Sequence record: PZ386954.1
DNA from: a phage
DNA length: 42,659 nt
Reading direction: 5' to 3' (one strand)
Under the pieces are notes generated by a model that saw only the letters and a list, made by a program, of their open reading frames with translations, ran no database searches and was not told where the DNA came from. Positions 3,111 to 22,671 of the stretch are shown piece by piece. The first letter of the stretch is position 1. Each line of letters opens with the position of its first letter. Both the position numbers and the translations under genes were made by a program.

Positions 3111-3462
3111 CATCCACTCGCGTATGGGTGCAGTGGAGGCTCGTATGCAATCCGTAGAACTTCGACTCGACAAGCACGAGGTACAAATCGCCACTCTTGA
3201 AAAGGGCGATGCTGCAATGCTGGCCAAGCTCGCGGAGAACGATACCCGCTGGCAGACCGTTCAGCAGCAGCTCCTTGTGGTTGAGCAAATTCAGGACATT
3301 CAGAAGACTATGAGCCATATCGGTAAGCTGTTTACGGCGGCGGCTCACGCTGTCAAATGGTGTCTCTTAACCGCATCCCTGTGTAGCGGTATCTACTTAG
3401 CGATTAAGGCTGGCGACCTCACGGCTCTCCAGTCCTTTATCACGACTATCTTGGGGATGTAA
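3079..3462 (+). CDS. membrane protein with N-terminal coiled-coil-like region and C-terminal hydrophobic segments; holin candidate
   Basis: 127-aa ORF with SD AAGGAAAG; C-terminal KWCLLTASLCSGIYLAIKAG...FITTILGM hydrophobic; sits immediately upstream of endolysin with overlapping stop/start. Confidence 0.45.
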   Translation: MTEAKKEPTPNIHSRMGAVEARMQSVELRLDKHEVQIATLEKGDAAMLAKLAENDTRWQTVQQQLLVVEQIQDIQKTMSHIGKLFTAAAHAVKWCLLTASLCSGIYLAIKAGDLTALQSFITTILGM

Positions 3463-3998
3463 TGACTAACTTTGAAATCTGTATGCGGTTCACCGGGCTG
3501 GCAGAAGGCGGTTACGCCAACCTGCCCGGCGACACCGGAGGGGAAACGAATCATGGAATTAGTGACGCTCGTGATGGAAAGCTGGATGGTAGAGCTTGCG
3601 GTGTCCCTACTGGGCTTGGCGGCACTATTTGTGTGCCTATCCGCGACCTCACCAAAGCGCAAGCCGAAGCAATCTATCGACGGGACTACTACAGCCCCAT
3701 CCGAGGTGACGAGCTTCACCCTGCGATTGCATGTGCCGTGTTCGACTACGGCGTTAACTCAGGTGTCTCCCGTGCGGCGAAAGCTCTACAGCGGGTATGC
3801 GGCGTTGCACAAGACGGGGTTATTGGCCCTGCTACCGTGGCAGCAGCCAAACGTCTGGAACCTCACTCCGCAGCAGCAGCCATCTGTGACCTTCGTATTG
3901 CGTTCCTAAAGGCTTCTACAGCCCCAACAATCGTTCGGTATAGGGATGCCTTGGTAGCTCGTGCAAAACGCTGTAGCGCTTACTGTGCGACGCTGTAG
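3462..3998 (+). CDS. endolysin, glycoside hydrolase family 108-like N-terminal domain plus peptidoglycan-binding C-terminal domain
   Basis: N-terminal FTGLAEGGYANLPGDTGGETNHGI matches the GH108 EGGY...D.GG.T..GI signature; C-terminal ...VAQDGVIGPATVAAAKR resembles PG_binding_3; no signal or SAR segment. Confidence 0.85.
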   Translation: MTNFEICMRFTGLAEGGYANLPGDTGGETNHGISDARDGKLDGRACGVPTGLGGTICVPIRDLTKAQAEAIYRRDYYSPIRGDELHPAIACAVFDYGVNSGVSRAAKALQRVCGVAQDGVIGPATVAAAKRLEPHSAAAAICDLRIAFLKASTAPTIVRYRDALVARAKRCSAYCATL

Positions 3999-12624: not shown

Positions 12625-13879
12625 ACTGTTGTTAACGGTGATGCGCGAGCGCGGGAAATACAACTCCCTGCGACACGCCATCCCGGAAGATACAATGAGC
12701 CAGACCACGGGCTATATGCTGCGTGCTTACGGCTCATACTTTGACGCGTTCCCGGACAGTGACTTCATTGACATTGAGACACTGGGTACGCATGTTCGTT
12801 TGAAGACAGGCAGCACGCCTGAACAGATGGCAGCCTTCGATTCGTTGTGCGCTCAGCTCAAAGAGTACAAGCCAACGAAGGAGCAGAAGGAGGGCATCCT
12901 TGACCAGCTCGTAGAGTTGGACACTGCTGGTCGTGCGAACCTGCTAATGCAACGGTACGATAATGGTGAAGAACTTGATATTATCTATGAGCTTGGCCGT
13001 CTGGCTGAGGGCGCACGCCGCAGTCGGGGTCAATCATCCGTTACCGATTACGTCGATGACGATGTTGTTGACATTATTAATCGGACTGATGATGACCAAG
13101 GCTTTAAGTTCGGTCTCATGTGCCTGCAAGATAGCGTACGCGTACTGCTTCCCGGCGACTCCGTTGCAATCGCTGCCCGACCTGACAGTGGGAAGACCAG
13201 CTTCATCGCGTTTAACCTTACGCGAATGGCGGCGACAGCAGCGAAGCTCTATCCGGGCAGACCAATCCTGTGGTTCAACAACGAAGGTCAGGGCATCAAC
13301 ATCATCCCGCGCATCTATCAGGCGGCGCTCAACTGTACGCTCCCGGAACTGAAAGAGCTGGGTGAGGACAGAGGCAAGCTGCACGCTGCGTATGCCAAAG
13401 CACTGGGTGCGCCAGCCAATGTGATTCGTGTTAAGGATATGCACGGCGCGACGCTGGCGAAAGCTGAGCAGGTTATCGAAGCGATGAACCCGTGCATCGT
13501 GGTGTGGGATATGCTTGCCAACTTCAAGCTGTCTGTGTCTGACCCGTCAAGCAACAAGGCGAGTCAGGTCGAGCAGCTATGGCAGGAGGTACGTGAGCTG
13601 GCAGTGCGCCACAACTTTGTGTCGCTGGCTACGGTTCAGGTATCTGCTGATGGTGCCGATGATATGTTCCCGGCACTGGATGCGCTCAAGGATTCCAAGA
13701 CTGGTATCCAAGGGGCGACTGATGTTATCGTGATGCTCGGCAGTGTGGATGACCCATCACTGGCGGCGCGGCGCGGTGTCAGTACGCCGAAGAACAAACG
13801 CCAGATTGCTGGGCGTCCAAGCAACGTGCGGTCGCAGGTACACTTCTTTGCTGACCGCTGCCAATACGAGGATATGTAA
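12614..13879 (+). CDS. replicative DNA helicase (DnaB/T7 gp4 helicase-like)
   Basis: Walker A IAARPDSGKTSF and Walker B-like CIVVWDML; start uncertain (GTG 12614 or ATG 12641). Confidence 0.7.
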   Translation: MLDKLLLTVMRERGKYNSLRHAIPEDTMSQTTGYMLRAYGSYFDAFPDSDFIDIETLGTHVRLKTGSTPEQMAAFDSLCAQLKEYKPTKEQKEGILDQLVELDTAGRANLLMQRYDNGEELDIIYELGRLAEGARRSRGQSSVTDYVDDDVVDIINRTDDDQGFKFGLMCLQDSVRVLLPGDSVAIAARPDSGKTSFIAFNLTRMAATAAKLYPGRPILWFNNEGQGINIIPRIYQAALNCTLPELKELGEDRGKLHAAYAKALGAPANVIRVKDMHGATLAKAEQVIEAMNPCIVVWDMLANFKLSVSDPSSNKASQVEQLWQEVRELAVRHNFVSLATVQVSADGADDMFPALDALKDSKTGIQGATDVIVMLGSVDDPSLAARRGVSTPKNKRQIAGRPSNVRSQVHFFADRCQYEDM

Positions 13880-14241
13880 TGAGCCATTTGAAGGTAGGTG
13901 ACCGAGTAGTAAACATTGATGCACGCAGTGTGCATTACGGTGCGAAGGGTACTGTGGTTGACATCAACGACAAGTACGTGAGCATTGACCGCGACGATGG
14001 TGCGCGTGGTTCTGGTATCAGTGGCTCGTGGACTGCACGCCATGCGTCGTGGGCGCTGATTGGTGACGCTCCGCATGTAGCAGCCACGCCTGAACCGGAG
14101 GCGACTGCCGAGGACTGGAGCTACGCTGAGGCTGAGCGTCTGTACCAAGCAGCGTGCGATGCCATGTCAGTGTACAACCAGTACGTTGAGCGTAAGCCGA
14201 CGACCAGCTACCTGCCCGGCAGCGTGCCGAGTAAGTGGTGA
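13879..14241 (+). CDS. hypothetical protein (120 aa)
   Basis: ATG overlapping helicase stop (TAATG); N-terminal KVGDRVV...GTVVDI KOW/SH3-like feel. Confidence 0.55.
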   Translation: MSHLKVGDRVVNIDARSVHYGAKGTVVDINDKYVSIDRDDGARGSGISGSWTARHASWALIGDAPHVAATPEPEATAEDWSYAEAERLYQAACDAMSVYNQYVERKPTTSYLPGSVPSKW

Positions 14242-15236: not shown

Positions 15237-17702
15237 ATGGCAATAAGAGCACAGGTAATCGACGTTGAGACTGAGAACCATGAGTGGTATGGGGAGCTGG
15301 CATCGCCGCGCTGCCCGGATAACTATGTGGTTATGCAGGGCCAGCGTGACTGTGTGCTGACCAAGGATGGCTGGGTATTCTACGAGCGCGAGGAGTATCG
15401 GTACAGTTCTCGTGAGGACTGGTTGCAGAACAAGAGTCTGCACCTGCATCCTGACACGAACATTCTGGTAGCTCACAACGCGCCGTATGAATTGAGCTGG
15501 TGGTTCGAGCATTACGGTGACGAGTTCATTGCCTTCCTCAAACGAGGTGGCCGTGTATTCTGTACCGCGTATGCTGAGTACCTGCTGACGCATCAGCAAT
15601 CCCAGTACCCATCCTTGAACGAGACAGCACCGAAGTATGGTGGTACTCACAAGGTGGATGCAGTCAAGGCAATGTGGGAGTCAGGCTACCTGACCAGCCA
15701 GATTGACCCTGAGCTGCTGAGCGAGTATCTGTCCGGGCCGTCCGGGGATATTGAGAACACGACCAAGCTGTTCGTTGGTCAGTGGGCTGAACTGACAAAG
15801 CAGGGCATGTTGCCGATGGCACTGACCCGCTTCGAAGGTATGCTCATGTGGGCGTACATGATGCACGCTGGTCTGCATGTTGACCGCGAGGTAGCCGAGC
15901 GCAACCGTCGCGAGTTACAGGATGCAATCAGTGGGCTGACTGAAACGCTGCTGAGTTACCTGCCAGCCGACATGCCGAAGGAAGCGCGTGAGCAATTCAA
16001 GTTCACGTCAGCTTATCACATGAGCGCCTTCGTGTTCGGTGGTGTGATGAAGTACAAGGCGCGAGTCGAGCGCCGGGATGCCGAGGGCAATCTCATTTAC
16101 GTGAAGGTGGATGCACCACTGTTCAAGCGAGGCAAGGACAAGTGGCTCAAGCATACCAGCGAGTGTGAGTGGGATGACGAGACTGGGTTGTGGTATGACC
16201 CGGTTGAGAAGGTACACCAGACTATCTACACCAGCGGCAAGCACAAGGGCGAGCCGAAGTTTGAGAAGCTGGCTACCGACGAGGTGGATACCAAGTGGGG
16301 TGAGGTGCTGTTCCGTATGCCGGGGCTTCTGCGTGTGCAGGATAAACGAGCGAAGGAGATTGCAGACAACCTCGAATGGGAAGACCCGAAGAAGCCGGGC
16401 GAGTATCTCCGGCGCACAGGTGATTGGGTAGGTAAGCGTAGGCTGGCCGATGGTTCCCCGGTATTCAGTACGGCGGGTGAGGTGCTGGACATTCTGGCAG
16501 CTCGTAAGATTCCCGGCGTGGTGGAGATTGCTGACCGGGCCAAGGCACAGAAAGACCTCGGCACCTACTACCTCAGCGAGACGTTCGATGAAGAAGGTAA
16601 CGTGACTGGCCAGTCGGGGATGATGCAGTTCATCCAGCCGGACAGTATCGTACACCACACCATCAACATGACCGCGACCGAGACGACGCGCTTATCTTCG
16701 GCGCGACCGAACAGCCAGAACTTGCCACGTAAAGGTACGAGTAAGGTTAAGCAGATGTTCACCTCCCGCTTTGGTGAAGGTGGCCGCATCGTTGAAGCTG
16801 ACTACTCGGCACTGGAAGTGGTGGGGCTGGCCGGGTTCAGTAAGGATAAGAACCTGATTCGTGCATTGCTCGATGGTATCGATATGCACTGTATGCGATT
16901 GTCAGCTCAGCTCAACGAGCCGTACGAGGACGTGCTTAAGAAGTGCAAGGATGAATCCCATCCTGACCATGCACGGTACAGTCAGATGCGTACTGACATT
17001 AAGCCGAAGGCGTTCTCATACCAGTACGGTGCAACAGCGCGAGGTATTGCTTACTCGACTGGTTGCTCAGAGGAAGAAGCGCAGGCGTTCATCGACAACG
17101 AGAAGGGTCTGTTCCCGGAAGTTGAAGAATGGTTCGACGCGGTTATCTTCCCTGCCGTAGAGAAAAGTGGACAGAGCAATGTATTCAAGGAGCAGGACGA
17201 GAACGGGCGGTGGCAGGTGTATCGCCGTGGTCACTTCCGTTCGCCGGGTGGAACTTGTTATTCATTCCGTCAGTACGAGAAATGGAACAAGGCGGCGCGT
17301 GCTCACCTGATGGAATACAAACCAACTCAGATGCGTAACTATCCTATTCAGGGTGAGACCGCATTTTGGGTACAGGGAATCGGTGGCCTGCTGTTCCGCT
17401 GGCTGCTATCGAACGACTTCTTTGGTGGGCGTGTGGTTCCCATCAACCAAGTGCATGACGCATTCTATTTCGACATTGCACCTGACTGCCCTCACGAGTT
17501 CTTCGTTGGACTCAAGGCAATCATGGAGAGCATCCCGGAATACTATAACCACGTATGGCCAGAGTATAACCTGACAGTGCCGTTCCCGGCAGAGGTGGAA
17601 GCAGGGCCAAGCATGTACGAGAAGCACCACGTAGAGACGACAGCCGATGAAGTGCTGGAGTTTAAGAGACAATTCCTGTTGAGTAAGGGTATCGCATTAT
17701 GA
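15237..17702 (+). CDS. DNA polymerase, family A (T7 gp5-like)
   Basis: 821 aa; DYSALEVVGLA (motif A), KPKAFSYQYGATARGI (motif B), INQVHDAFYFD (motif C), RPNSQNLPRK. Confidence 0.9.
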   Translation: MAIRAQVIDVETENHEWYGELASPRCPDNYVVMQGQRDCVLTKDGWVFYEREEYRYSSREDWLQNKSLHLHPDTNILVAHNAPYELSWWFEHYGDEFIAFLKRGGRVFCTAYAEYLLTHQQSQYPSLNETAPKYGGTHKVDAVKAMWESGYLTSQIDPELLSEYLSGPSGDIENTTKLFVGQWAELTKQGMLPMALTRFEGMLMWAYMMHAGLHVDREVAERNRRELQDAISGLTETLLSYLPADMPKEAREQFKFTSAYHMSAFVFGGVMKYKARVERRDAEGNLIYVKVDAPLFKRGKDKWLKHTSECEWDDETGLWYDPVEKVHQTIYTSGKHKGEPKFEKLATDEVDTKWGEVLFRMPGLLRVQDKRAKEIADNLEWEDPKKPGEYLRRTGDWVGKRRLADGSPVFSTAGEVLDILAARKIPGVVEIADRAKAQKDLGTYYLSETFDEEGNVTGQSGMMQFIQPDSIVHHTINMTATETTRLSSARPNSQNLPRKGTSKVKQMFTSRFGEGGRIVEADYSALEVVGLAGFSKDKNLIRALLDGIDMHCMRLSAQLNEPYEDVLKKCKDESHPDHARYSQMRTDIKPKAFSYQYGATARGIAYSTGCSEEEAQAFIDNEKGLFPEVEEWFDAVIFPAVEKSGQSNVFKEQDENGRWQVYRRGHFRSPGGTCYSFRQYEKWNKAARAHLMEYKPTQMRNYPIQGETAFWVQGIGGLLFRWLLSNDFFGGRVVPINQVHDAFYFDIAPDCPHEFFVGLKAIMESIPEYYNHVWPEYNLTVPFPAEVEAGPSMYEKHHVETTADEVLEFKRQFLLSKGIAL

Positions 17703-18592
17703 CCGCATCTGTATTGAACCGCATGAACTCCATCGTCGAACAGTATGTTGACGAGGAAGAACTTGACTTTAACGAAGCCACGTCTGGTGGTGGTAAGCTG
17801 CTGCCGGAAGGTAAGGCACTGGCACGTCTGGTTGGCTACATTGAAGTGGGGCCGAGCGTAACCAAGCAGGCACCGGACAAGCCGCCTGTCAATAAGTTCT
17901 TCCTCCAGTTCGCGCTGTGGGGCAAGGCCAAGAACGGCGAGACTTACCACGAAGTTGTCAATGGTAAGATGGTGCCGGGCAAGGTGCGCACGCAGTTCAT
18001 CGCTGTGAAGAAAGACCTCAACAGCAAGTCCGGCGCATACAAACTGTTCAAGCGTATGAACCCGGACAAGACTGCGAAGCACTTCGCGCAGCTTCTGAAC
18101 CACACCTTCATCGTTCCGATTATCCACAACGAATCGGGCGAGGGTGAGAACAAGAAGGTGTACGCCAACATCGACCTTGAGAACATCATGCTCGCGGTTG
18201 ACCCGGTGACTGACCAGCCGTACCCGGTGCCGGAGGTTGAGGACGAGACTCTGTTCAAGCTGTTCCTGTGGAACCGTCCGACCAAGGAAGACTGGGAATC
18301 CCTGTACATCGAAGGCAAGAACGACGATGGTAAATCCAAGAACTGGATTCAGGATAAGCTGCTGGAATCTCCAGAGTTCCCCGGCTCTCCGCTTGACCTG
18401 CTGCTGAATGGTGCAGGTGCTGGCTCAGCGATTGCCGAGCTGCCGGAGCTGGGCGACGTGGGTGCGCCGGAGGAAGTGGCCGAGGTCAAGGAAGAAGTGA
18501 AGGAGCTGGAGACGGCTGGCGCTGCTGACAAGACCAGCACCAAAGAGCCGGACGTAACTGGTGACGCTGACTTCGGGCTGCCGAGTCTGTAA
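17699..18592 (+). CDS. hypothetical protein (297 aa) with acidic C-terminal region
   Basis: ATG overlapping DNAP stop (ATGA); C-terminal EVKEEVKELE...DADFGLPSL. Confidence 0.6.
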   Translation: MTASVLNRMNSIVEQYVDEEELDFNEATSGGGKLLPEGKALARLVGYIEVGPSVTKQAPDKPPVNKFFLQFALWGKAKNGETYHEVVNGKMVPGKVRTQFIAVKKDLNSKSGAYKLFKRMNPDKTAKHFAQLLNHTFIVPIIHNESGEGENKKVYANIDLENIMLAVDPVTDQPYPVPEVEDETLFKLFLWNRPTKEDWESLYIEGKNDDGKSKNWIQDKLLESPEFPGSPLDLLLNGAGAGSAIAELPELGDVGAPEEVAEVKEEVKELETAGAADKTSTKEPDVTGDADFGLPSL

Positions 18593-20286: not shown

Positions 20287-21410
20287 TGACCAAGTTAACG
20301 AATCACCAACTCAAAGAAGACATTGCCGAAGGGCTTGGCACTAAAGCCATTGCGGATAAGCACGACATGACCGAGAGTGCTATCCGATACCGGAAGCGCC
20401 AGCTCGCCAAGAGCGGCTGGAGTCCTGAGCACGACATGACGAAGGAGGTGCCGGAGCCGTACGCGGTCAAGGGTACGTCCACGCTGTACGATAAGGACGG
20501 CAACGTTGTCATGCAGTGGGTGAAGACTGCGCTCGACCGTGAGCAAGAGCTGGCCATGTTGCAGGCAGCAGTTGATGCAATCAGTGAGAGCATCGTGCCG
20601 GAGCCGCCGCGCTTGTATGCAGGTCGCACAGCGCCAGCCGATTTGCTTAACCTGTTCGTCCTGACTGACTACCACCTCGGTATGCTGGCATGGGCAGAGG
20701 AGACTGGCGACGACTGGGATATGAAGATTGCGGAAGACCTGCTGGTCAAGTGGTTCGCCGCCGCCATCGACAGTGCGCCGCCAGCTCAGGTTGCTATCTT
20801 CGGACAGCTCGGTGACTTCCTGCACTGGGATGGGTTGGATGCAGTAACGCCATCAAGTGGTCATGTGCTGGATGCCGACACGCGATTCCAGAAGCTGGTG
20901 CGTGTGGCCATTCGAGCGCAGCGCCGCATCATTGGTATGCTGCTGGAGAAGTTCCCGCAGGTTCACGTAGTGTGTGCCGAGGGCAACCATGACATGGCCA
21001 GCTCAATCTGGATGCGAGAGCTGCTGCATGTGCTGTACGCCGACGAGCCGCGTGTCACTGTTGACCGCAGCCCCGACCCGTACTATTGCTATGAGCATGG
21101 CGAGACGGCGCTGTTCTTCCACCATGGTCACAAGCGTAAGGCAGAACAACTGGAGACTGTACTGGTATCCAAGTTCCGCGAAGTGTATGGCCGAACCAAA
21201 CACGCTTATGCACACGTTGGCCACCTGCATCACAAGAAGGTATTGGAGTCTGGTGTCATGGTTGTCGAGCAGCACCGTACGCTGGCGGCGAAGGATGCCT
21301 ATGCTTCTCGTGGTGGTTGGCTGAGTGAGCGCAGCGCGAGCGTGATTACGTATCATGCCCGGTACGGTGAGGTCGCACGATTCACCATTAGCCCGGAGAT
21401 GTTAGAGTGA
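20283..21410 (+). CDS. calcineurin-like metallophosphoesterase with N-terminal helix-turn-helix domain
   Basis: motifs DYH, GDFLHWDG, EGNHD, HHGH, GHLHH in canonical order; N-terminal AIADKHDMTESAIRYRKRQLAKSG HTH-like. Confidence 0.7.
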   Translation: MMTKLTNHQLKEDIAEGLGTKAIADKHDMTESAIRYRKRQLAKSGWSPEHDMTKEVPEPYAVKGTSTLYDKDGNVVMQWVKTALDREQELAMLQAAVDAISESIVPEPPRLYAGRTAPADLLNLFVLTDYHLGMLAWAEETGDDWDMKIAEDLLVKWFAAAIDSAPPAQVAIFGQLGDFLHWDGLDAVTPSSGHVLDADTRFQKLVRVAIRAQRRIIGMLLEKFPQVHVVCAEGNHDMASSIWMRELLHVLYADEPRVTVDRSPDPYYCYEHGETALFFHHGHKRKAEQLETVLVSKFREVYGRTKHAYAHVGHLHHKKVLESGVMVVEQHRTLAAKDAYASRGGWLSERSASVITYHARYGEVARFTISPEMLE

Positions 21411-21625
21411 CACGAACCCTGTACCAAGAAGATGTGGTGCAGCTTAAAGAAGATGGCCTCTCGATTGAGTGGGAGGCCAACACTCAGGTTGAGCTGTACA
21501 AAGATGGCACCGTCTGTATTTCTCAGGACGGTGAGGAAGTCTGGTTGCCTTGGGCGTACGTCCGAGATATTATCTTTGCTCTTGAGGAAGCACACGATGC
21601 ACATGAAAGACACCGTAGTAGTTGA
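21407..21625 (+). CDS. hypothetical small acidic protein (72 aa)
   Basis: GTG start overlapping upstream stop (GTGA); overlaps next gene start by 29 nt. Confidence 0.4.
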   Translation: MTRTLYQEDVVQLKEDGLSIEWEANTQVELYKDGTVCISQDGEEVWLPWAYVRDIIFALEEAHDAHERHRSS

Positions 21626-22100
21626 CTTGGATGGTACGCTGGCTGATGGCCGCTGGCGTTTGCACCTGCTGCCTCCACCGGAGCGTCGGCACCTTGATGA
21701 AGCGTGGGCCGAGTTCAACTTGGCTGGCGCTGACGACCCTGCGTTTCAGGACACGATTGACATTGTGAACGCTCTGGCCCTCACGTATCGCATTGTCATC
21801 CTGACCGGACGCGGAGCCGTGGCCCGTGAAGTAACAGAGCAGTGGCTCGATGAAGCTGGTGTGGTTTACGACAAGCTAATCATGCGGGAGATTGGTGACT
21901 GCCGTAAGGACACTGAGATGAAGCGTGCAGCGCTGGAGGACATCGGCATTGAGAACATCGTGTGTGCCTTCGACGACCTGCCCCACATCGTGGACTTCAT
22001 GCGTGGCCTCGGCATCACAGTGTATGAAGTGACCCGGTACGAGGACAACCATGAGTATGTCCACGCCAATGCCAAATACGATGGAGACAAAGATGAGTAA
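21597..22100 (+). CDS. HAD-superfamily phosphatase
   Basis: N-terminal VVVDLDGTLADG (DxDGT motif I); ATG at 21597 with GAGGAAG SD; track ORF extended upstream. Confidence 0.65.
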   Translation: MHMKDTVVVDLDGTLADGRWRLHLLPPPERRHLDEAWAEFNLAGADDPAFQDTIDIVNALALTYRIVILTGRGAVAREVTEQWLDEAGVVYDKLIMREIGDCRKDTEMKRAALEDIGIENIVCAFDDLPHIVDFMRGLGITVYEVTRYEDNHEYVHANAKYDGDKDE

Positions 22101-22671
22101 GAAGGGTAAGCAGTTTATCTTAGACCCGTCCCGTAATTGGGGTACTGGCACACTGCTGAGCGACATTGCTGAGCAGGGTATCATCCTGACGTACGACGAG
22201 CCGTATGACGTGCCGAACGATAGCCGGGACTACTACACCTGCGTGAAGGATGGTAAGACTCACCTGCTTGTGCTGGAGCCTTACGAGGTGAAGGAAGTCG
22301 AGACTGCATTCATCCCGGTTGACCCGTACGACCCGGCCTCTGATGTTGAGGTGGCCGTGGCCAAGAGTGCCGGGCCGGGCGGTATGAAGTTCGACGGCGG
22401 CAAGCCCCGCATGTCCTTGTTGTTCGATGGCTGCCCGAATGCGCTGGAGGCTGTGGCCAGCGTGCTCACCTTCGGCGCAGAGAAGTATGCAGCCCACTCG
22501 TGGCAGACTGTACCGGAAGGTGAGGAACGCTACAAGTCGGCGCTGCTCCGGCACCTGACGGCGGTGGGCAAAGGTGAGGAACTGGATAGCGAATCCAACC
22601 TACACCATCTGGCGCACGCCGCGTGCAATGCGCTGTTCATTCTGGAACTCGAATTAAGGAAACGCAAATGA
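22093..22671 (+). CDS. conserved phage protein; C-terminal domain resembles the family sometimes annotated dATP/dGTP diphosphohydrolase N-terminal-like or DUF
   Basis: KFDGGKPRMSLLF...ALEAVASVLTFGAEKY...RYKSALLRHL...HHLAHAACNALFILE; assignment from memory of the family, not searched. Confidence 0.5.
   Translation: MSKKGKQFILDPSRNWGTGTLLSDIAEQGIILTYDEPYDVPNDSRDYYTCVKDGKTHLLVLEPYEVKEVETAFIPVDPYDPASDVEVAVAKSAGPGGMKFDGGKPRMSLLFDGCPNALEAVASVLTFGAEKYAAHSWQTVPEGEERYKSALLRHLTAVGKGEELDSESNLHHLAHAACNALFILELELRKRK

Follow-up and report, generated by a model that had tools for sequence, protein, structure and literature searches.

The stretch of DNA analysed here (the window; 42,659 bp, sequence record PZ386954.1) belongs to an ordinary T7-like coliphage, a podophage (Autographiviridae, genus Bonnellvirus), of which it is the complete, circularly permuted genome, and two adjacent genes in it encode a HAD phosphatase of 167 amino acids (aa) and a 192-aa protein with a PF18909 (formerly DUF5664) domain. 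With moderate confidence we read these as two separate, translationally coupled enzymes of the middle, DNA-metabolism block, a 3'-phosphatase and a (d)NTP pyrophosphohydrolase, which would handle breakdown products and the deoxynucleoside triphosphate (dNTP) pool and are unlikely to serve RNA repair. This reading rests on the families to which the proteins belong, on their conserved catalytic residues, on gene order and on a recurrent gene cassette; the enzymatic identities of both proteins are well supported, and from them and their neighbours we infer the physiological substrates and the pool-conditioning role. The original prediction had drawn attention to a HAD phosphatase next to a conserved phage domain protein, and both genes proved to be real, lie where it put them and carry the motifs that it quoted.

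The likeliest start of the HAD gene is the ATG at 21597, which has GAGGA 8 nucleotides (nt) upstream and agrees with the N-termini of 44 homologues. Pfam matched its product to PF25109 (HAD_PNKP, the phosphatase domain of polynucleotide kinase-phosphatase) at 4.5e-15 and 56.5 bits (cut-off 27.6), over profile positions 2-139 of 143, with weaker, sub-threshold matches to class-B acid phosphatase and generic HAD models; in PHROG it matched phrog_415 at 1.9e-54. When a profile built from 45 homologues was compared with all PDB sequences, Capnocytophaga Pnkp1 (4xrp, 5e-19) and T4 Pnk (5uj0, 6e-12; 1ltq, 9e-11) came out on top, and the match after these Pnkp domains was a hypothetical protein at 2.7e-3. 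In sequence, the resemblance of the protein to Pnkp phosphatase domains exceeds that to other HAD enzymes of solved structure. The 45 homologues all have D10, D12, T14, R21, R72, R97, D101, R103, D105, K109 and D126, and at least 90% of them also keep T70 and D127. In HMMER alignments the conserved residues fall on D165 and D167 (motif I), S211, R213, K258, D277 and D278 of the T4 enzyme, in which D165 is the nucleophile, D167 the acid/base, S211 and K258 contact the phosphate and D278 is a Mg2+ ligand (Das and Shuman, PMC3592404). The PF25109 match and the retention of these residues bear out the earlier suggestion that the protein is a relative of polynucleotide or nucleotide phosphatases.

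All 167 aa are accounted for by the HAD domain; a kinase domain was sought in Pfam and NCBIfam, where no P-loop family matched, and no GxxxxGK[ST] motif is present. Every one of the top-ranked homologues listed is likewise HAD-only by Pfam, at about 160-240 aa. The protein thus looks like a phosphatase-only relative of Pnkp, in a family with 1,276 phage records, chiefly from Klebsiella, Escherichia and Streptomyces phages. Since neither the gene nor the listed top homologues contain a P-loop kinase, the public label 'polynucleotide kinase' is wrong, and the bifunctional polynucleotide kinase-phosphatase named in records of related phages was ruled out by the missing P-loop 5'-kinase domain. 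A literature search found no functional study of a stand-alone phage HAD phosphatase, nor of these Bonnellvirus genes.

Compared with the phosphatase domain of T4 Pnkp/PseT (1ltq, 5uj0; about 1e-11), the window protein is alike in its DxDxT HAD fold family and in the conserved nucleophile, acid/base, Ser/Thr, Lys and DD residues; it differs in having no N-terminal P-loop 5'-kinase, no partner RNA ligase in the genome and a longer insert between motifs I and II. Its best solved-structure match, Pnkp1 of Capnocytophaga gingivalis (Pnkp1-Rnl-Hen1), joins kinase and phosphatase in one fused protein and acts together with a ligase and Hen1, whereas the window holds no such partners. Stand-alone DNA 3'-phosphatases of the yeast Tpp1 type, which are eukaryotic DNA-repair enzymes, are PNKP-related HAD proteins that are active without a kinase domain. 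In the favoured reading the HAD protein is a phosphomonoesterase of the Pnkp phosphatase type, with the DxDxT motif, a need for Mg2+ and no 5'-kinase. The aspartyl-phosphate intermediate would be made on Asp10, with Asp12 as the general acid/base, and the phosphates taken off would be those at the 3' ends of DNA or RNA or on 3'-phosphorylated (deoxy)nucleotides. The phosphatase of T4 Pnkp is also active on 3'-dTMP (PMC3592404). A longer version of the HAD protein is found in Tempevirinae (Warwickvirus), with 236 aa, a 17-aa N-terminal and a ~60-aa C-terminal extension (..FVGSKDSLVNASFTRGIAYDVVSYHDKSFIVHDDSGCAW..); it stands alone, with MPE (metallophosphoesterase), kinase and PF18909 neighbours all absent.

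The PF18909 gene most likely starts at 22093, with GGAGA 5 nt upstream, rather than at 22051, the first ATG of the open reading frame (ORF). Its start overlaps the HAD stop in ATGAGTAA, an arrangement identical in Escherichia phage mellemsur, and the overlap of the two genes by 8 nt is of the kind that couples translation. The conserved phage domain noticed earlier in this protein was identified by profile search as Pfam PF18909 ('dATP/dGTP diphosphohydrolase N-terminal'; 5.4e-33, 113.4 bits, cut-off 27), which covers the C-terminal 96 residues. The family comprises 25,727 cluster representatives at E ≤ 1e-3 and 781 phage records. Within Autographiviridae the domain has 35 invariant columns in 57 sequences, and the N-terminal ~95 residues are wholly different between genera. 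The AlphaFold2 model of the 192-aa protein (pLDDT 86.8) consists of an N-terminal SH3/KOW-like barrel and a C-terminal four-helix unit. No match was obtained to PDB sequences, and Foldseek against the PDB gave weak SH3-like matches to the N-terminal domain only.

The predicted activity of this protein follows from a characterized homologue. The purified DUF5664 protein of Arthrobacter phage Wayne is Mn2+-dependent and converts dATP, dUTP and dGTP to the deoxynucleoside monophosphate (dNMP) and pyrophosphate (PPi), with a kcat of 0.48 s-1 for dATP, and does not hydrolyse ribonucleoside triphosphates (PMC12884076, 2026 NAR). A DUF5664-DUF550 fusion ('MazZ') of phage SH-Ab 15497 has dATP/dGTP pyrophosphohydrolase activity, in so far as it is cited in PMC12884076. 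The Wayne protein (ALY10775.1) carries PF18909 at residues 98-195 of 198 aa, the same layout as in the window protein, and the two are 43% identical over 77 aa (E 1e-10); K131, Y132, W137, Y147, R153, H154, D165 and E167 are common to both, and H175 and N179 of the window protein differ in Wayne. Both the Wayne and the SH-Ab 15497 protein resemble that of the window in having an N-terminal extension followed by the same C-terminal Pfam domain, although their N-terminal domains are unrelated to it and specificity may differ. The PF18909 protein, with its SH3-like domain at the N-terminus, would hydrolyse selected dNTPs to dNMP and PPi.

The DNA of Wayne and SH-Ab 15497 is made with 2-aminoadenine (Z), and these phages carry PurZ, DutZ and DmtZ, unlike the window phage. 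The window yielded no homologue of PurZ, Dut or NDT, and tblastn with Wayne PurZ0 and DmtZ-DutZ gave nothing there below E 0.27. A Z-genome pathway was ruled out by the lack of PurZ and Dut in that search, and from the absence of PurZ, Dut and NDT homologues it follows that the DUF5664 enzyme of the window belongs to a phage with ordinary DNA. A relation to the all-alpha NTP pyrophosphohydrolases (MazG, HisE, dimeric dUTPase, AF0060) was also considered: there is no Pfam MazG match, the hhalign probability to phage MazG-like proteins is 0.3%, the EExxE...ExxD motif is not evident and Foldseek gave no significant match.

The two genes lie in a colinear block. All genes of the window are on the + strand, in the same order as in mellemsur, J8-65 and LIMEzero: primase, helicase, nucleotidyltransferase (NTase), DNA polymerase, a 297-aa protein, 5'-3' exonuclease, endonuclease VII, MPE, a 72-aa ORF, HAD, the PF18909 protein, two small ORFs and RNA polymerase. 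The 2.8-kb region at the HAD and PF18909 genes is 92.5% identical to mellemsur and 83-92% identical to other 'sur' phages, J8-65 and Kosakonia virus Kc261, Bonnellvirus relatives carry both genes, and an IMG/VR contig of 42,657 bp encodes both proteins at 99-100% amino-acid identity. Between 19894 and 23086 each gene runs 4-8 nt into the next, and a scan for promoter-like and terminator-like sites found no excess of them over shuffled sequence; together these are consistent with co-expression of the genes in this interval. The coordinates are collected in the table below.

Table. Features of the window and of comparison loci (the latter preceded by their locus label).
Feature	Position	Strand	Assignment or remark
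HAD (DxDxT) phosphatase gene, 167 aa	21597..22100	+	Pnkp-type, kinase-less; Pfam PF25109, phrog_415
HAD motif I, D10-L-D12-G-T14	21624..21638	+	
HAD motif II, T70-G71-R72	21804..21812	+	
HAD motif III, K109	21921..21923	+	
HAD motif IV, D126-D127	21972..21977	+	
PF18909 protein, 192 aa, whole gene	22093..22671	+	
N-terminal SH3/KOW-like beta-barrel, residues 1-96	22093..22380	+	lineage-variable; AlphaFold2 model
C-terminal PF18909/DUF5664 (dGTP_diPhyd_N) four-helix domain	22381..22671	+	predicted (d)NTP pyrophosphohydrolase; Pfam
KFDGGKPR motif	22387..22410	+	
HLAHAACNALFILE motif	22606..22647	+	
MPE gene, 375 aa	20283..21410	+	N-terminal helix-turn-helix (HTH) and calcineurin-like metallophosphoesterase domain; conserved partner upstream of HAD
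72-aa ORF	21407..21625	+	between MPE and HAD genes
297-aa protein	17699..18592	+	phrog_862; after DNA polymerase
HNH_3 + HTH homing-endonuclease gene, 142 aa	12196..12624	+	between primase and helicase
HNH_3 + HTH homing-endonuclease gene, 141 aa	18592..19017	+	between 297-aa protein and 5'-3' exonuclease
S-adenosylmethionine lyase, 129 aa	5571..5960	+	early protein; Pfam PF23780, 1.4e-27
Endolysin GH108	3462..3998	+	Pfam scan
MPE-HAD-[dNMP kinase or PF18909] cassette loci	L163:2827-5061, L164:2874-5040, L168:3314-6580, L167:3480-6637		
HAD::PF18909 fusion P0372, 267 aa	L165:6001-6804		between endonuclease VII and RNA polymerase
MazG/PRA-PH-like protein, examples	L119:9465-9734, L134:9592-9816, L148:9757-9984, L157:9655-9939		
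Warwickvirus HAD version, 236 aa	L162:3947-4657		

Gene neighbourhoods were compared in 80 viral loci of IMG/VR seeded on the HAD family and in 80 loci seeded on PF18909. In the HAD-seeded set the MPE gene is directly upstream of HAD in 44/80, and the slot 3' of HAD holds a dNMP kinase (PHROG 139) in 35/80, PF18909 in 20/80 and both together in none. Resolved by arrangement, 35 loci read MPE-HAD-dNMP kinase, 8 MPE-HAD-PF18909 and 12 HAD-PF18909 with no detectable MPE; HAD is alone in 24, and a single locus has MPE-HAD only. Webervirus PhiKpNIH-2 and Kagunavirus fKuEco01 show MPE-HAD-dNMP kinase in their annotation. Two relatives differ in this slot: ECBP5 has MPE-HAD-dNMP kinase-DNA ligase and its relative Nufs112 MPE-HAD-DUF5664-DNA ligase, with an ATP-dependent ligase in both. 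A conserved cassette of the form MPE-HAD-[dNMP kinase or PF18909] is common to Drexlerviridae (Webervirus), Guernseyvirinae (Kagunavirus) and Autographiviridae. For the P-loop protein 3' of HAD in T1-like phages Pfam and the PDB were uninformative, and PHROG 139 'dNMP kinase' was its only match.

In the PF18909-seeded set HAD is immediately upstream in 31/80 and absent in 47/80, and 2/80 end too soon upstream. Wherever both occur in one locus they are adjacent, on the same strand and with HAD first (20/20 HAD-seeded, 31/31 PF18909-seeded), and they are separated in none. In one case, P0372, they form a direct HAD::PF18909 fusion without the variable N-terminal barrel. Among the HAD-less loci the upstream neighbour is a 3'-5' exonuclease in 20, an MPE in 6 and a 402-aa protein in 5, and nothing was recognised in 17. 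In 10 of the 20 exonuclease loci a small protein of marginal MazG/PRA-PH similarity lies between the exonuclease and PF18909. These proteins of 74-94 aa, directly upstream of PF18909 in HAD-less Autographiviridae (50-70% PF18909 identity; 10/80 of the PF18909-seeded loci), show an EExxE...EAxD motif in the alignment, with marginal Pfam E-values of 2e-4 to 4e-3, and their position beside PF18909 echoes the DUF5664-DUF550 fusion of Z-genome phages.

In the favoured reading, of coupled but separate enzymes, the MPE, HAD and PF18909 proteins would together deal with the products of nucleic-acid breakdown and prepare the deoxynucleotide pool for the synthesis of phage DNA. This role is preferred because the recurrent neighbours of HAD are deoxynucleotide enzymes and nucleases and because the kinase and ligase needed for heal-and-seal are absent. 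The original prediction had proposed, as a speculation, either RNA/tRNA repair or nucleotide-pool manipulation. The latter is upheld for the downstream gene, since its DUF5664 homologue (43% identity over 77 aa) is a characterized dNTP pyrophosphohydrolase (PMC12884076), and it also fits the neighbours of HAD in other phages, dNMP kinase or PF18909; the former is poorly supported, as Pfam scans of 20 other window ORFs and tblastn searches of the window turned up neither a polynucleotide kinase nor a ligase, and the four genes that had been linked do not travel together.

Those four genes were NTase, MPE, HAD and PF18909. The NTase has 212 phage records, nearly all of 39-46 kb, and adjoins a DNA polymerase gene wherever annotation is shown. 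It occurs alongside HAD only in the Bonnellvirus/LIMEzero group, plus three weak matches of 28-31% identity (L023, L046, L109); co-conservation therefore fails, and a fixed four-gene system was ruled out. The 'unusual density' of end-processing candidates that had been remarked on is the standard middle-gene block of the clade, present in mellemsur, J8-65 and LIMEzero.

Several points weigh against the reading that we favour. A 3'-phosphatase is hard to place in a pathway where the known phage nucleases leave 3'-OH ends. The substrate specificity of PF18909 is not transferable at 27-43% identity, and Wayne has Ala in place of H175, a residue that never varies in the Autographiviridae clade. 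Many phages carry HAD without PF18909 or PF18909 without HAD, and where the two lie side by side in colinear Autographiviridae genomes this may be inherited synteny. The shared slot beside HAD does not define one pathway, because a dNMP kinase and a dNTP pyrophosphohydrolase drive opposite fluxes. The fusion P0372 comes from a single metagenomic Autographiviridae contig of one sample (Logan SRR7122376) and may be either genuine or an artefact of assembly, produced by a 1-nt error where the stop and start overlap.

The RNA-repair alternative holds that HAD heals 2',3'-cyclic-phosphate or 3'-phosphate ends of host-cleaved tRNA, with the CCA-adding-like NTase and the MPE helping to restore the ends, and we consider it unlikely. 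The closest solved relatives of HAD, Pnkp1 and T4 Pnkp, are indeed RNA-repair enzymes, the T4 phosphatase heals RNA>p ends (PMC3592404), and the NTase shows a PolyA_pol/CCA-type head motif, although a weak one and the only one found in it. Nevertheless, HAD has no kinase domain, and polynucleotide kinase, RNA ligase and DNA ligase were not detected in the window. A Pfam scan of 20 other window ORFs, which did show the S-adenosylmethionine lyase, the two HNH endonucleases and the GH108 endolysin, found no kinase or ligase domain; tblastn of phage dNMP-kinase-like and ATP-dependent ligase proteins gave no match in the window; and the annotation of J8-65 has no kinase or ligase. Ends with 3'-OH and 5'-OH cannot be sealed by conventional ATP-dependent ligases without a 5'-kinase, and HAD alone would leave such ends, as both kinase and ligase are absent from the window. 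The NTase, moreover, is missing from most HAD-bearing phages and is seen beside DNA polymerase, and the recurrent neighbours of HAD are deoxynucleotide enzymes. An RNA-repair operon of the T4 Pnkp-Rnl or Pnkp-Hen1 kind was rejected because these searches showed no co-encoded 5'-kinase or ligase.

Two further proposals take the pair as a unit. In one, which is doubtful, PF18909 would convert a specific (d)NTP to (d)NMP and HAD would take this to the nucleoside, so that e.g. dUTP, dITP or a host-favoured dNTP is irreversibly removed. The invariable adjacency of the two genes, the 8-nt overlap, the natural fusion and the above-threshold matches of HAD homologues to the class-B acid phosphatase/nucleotidase model of Pfam speak for it; yet the gene order is the reverse of the reaction order, HAD is more often found beside a dNMP kinase, which competes for dNMP, the Pnkp-type active site is 3'-specific in T4 (PMC3592404), and only a single fusion is known. 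In the other, the pair would act in counter-defence by destroying 3'-phosphorylated or pyrophosphorylated immune or stress nucleotides, with (p)ppGpp, (p)ppApp, toxSAS-pyrophosphorylated tRNA 3' ends and breakdown products of cyclic oligonucleotides as candidate targets. A 3'-phosphatase and a pyrophosphohydrolase would provide the needed chemistry, and both genes are accessory and patchy, as anti-defence genes often are. It is nonetheless improbable, as the genes sit in the replication/nuclease block with DNA-metabolism neighbours and not among the early genes, no homology to known anti-defence proteins was found, and the Wayne enzyme is inactive on ribonucleoside triphosphates (PMC12884076). 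In a more general form, HAD and PF18909 would make up a coupled, occasionally fused device that irreversibly destroys one nucleotide class, be it a specific dNTP, degraded as far as the nucleoside, or alarmone, toxin or immune nucleotides that are 3'-(pyro)phosphorylated, in an MPE-HAD-X slot elsewhere filled by dNMP kinase. This is rather unlikely; if true, Autographiviridae, Drexlerviridae and Guernseyvirinae would share a modular phage system, not described before, that controls the nucleotide pool or counters defence.

A very improbable reading comes from database labels, by which the PF18909 protein would regulate lysis or RNA polymerase. The label 'endolysin; inhibits RNA polymerase', or 'endolysin' alone, is attached to PHROG families 5033 and 2252 and copied in many Vibrio, Pseudomonas and Xanthomonas phage records, and the RNA polymerase gene lies 0.4 kb downstream of PF18909 with two small ORFs between. 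Against it, PF18909 is the only domain detected in the window protein, with no amidase, lysozyme or other lytic domain by Pfam; the phage has its own GH108 endolysin; dNTP pyrophosphohydrolase activity was measured for a family member (PMC12884076); and the family is also present in phages with no RNA polymerase match in the fetched locus. The 'endolysin' label on PF18909 proteins looks like a propagated misannotation.

Among the neighbouring genes, the upstream MPE carries a 'DNA repair exonuclease' (Mre11/SbcD) label. The 72-aa ORF overlaps both neighbours, by GTGA at the MPE stop and by 29 nt at the HAD start, is annotated in mellemsur and J8-65 and has 46-100% amino-acid identity in Bonnellvirus relatives; its only Pfam match is a marginal one to the short IN_DBD_C model (22.1 bits, cut-off 21; 9e-5; 21 residues). 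It is one of several small proteins or domains in the replication block that look SH3/KOW-like (13879..14241, 21407..21625 and 22093..22380), among which an Xrn1 SH3_12 match fell below the cut-off (6e-5). The 297-aa protein ends in an acidic tail (..DVTGDADFGLPSL), weakly matches a phage replication-initiation family in NCBIfam, and may be a T7 gp2.5-like single-stranded DNA-binding protein; for none of the genes studied did NCBIfam give an informative family. The two HNH_3 + HTH proteins are paralogues, 53% identical. In mellemsur and J8-65 an HNH gene is annotated at neither site, with primase and helicase following without a gap and a 65-aa ORF at the second site, so the two genes look like mobile insertions. 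The 129-aa early protein is, by its PF23780 family, of the T3 SAMase type of anti-restriction protein; the similarly placed first early gene of the J8-65 RefSeq record, gp01 (129 aa), is named 'SAM-dependent methyltransferase'.

The HAD and PF18909 proteins belong to known families, as ordinary members, and the phage to a known genus, and the new points are modest: the MPE-HAD-[dNMP kinase or PF18909] cassette, the single fusion and the systematic misannotations. The last of these have practical weight, as 'polynucleotide kinase' for HAD and 'endolysin' for many PF18909 genes mislead functional prediction. The occurrence of a Pnkp-type 3'-phosphatase beside deoxynucleotide enzymes in three lineages raises the question of which 3'-phosphorylated substrate arises in T7-like and T1-like infection. 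The presence of DUF5664 in a phage with ordinary DNA means that the family is not specific to 2-aminoadenine genomes, and outside the Z-genome phages its role is possibly a dUTPase-like sanitising of the nucleotide pool.

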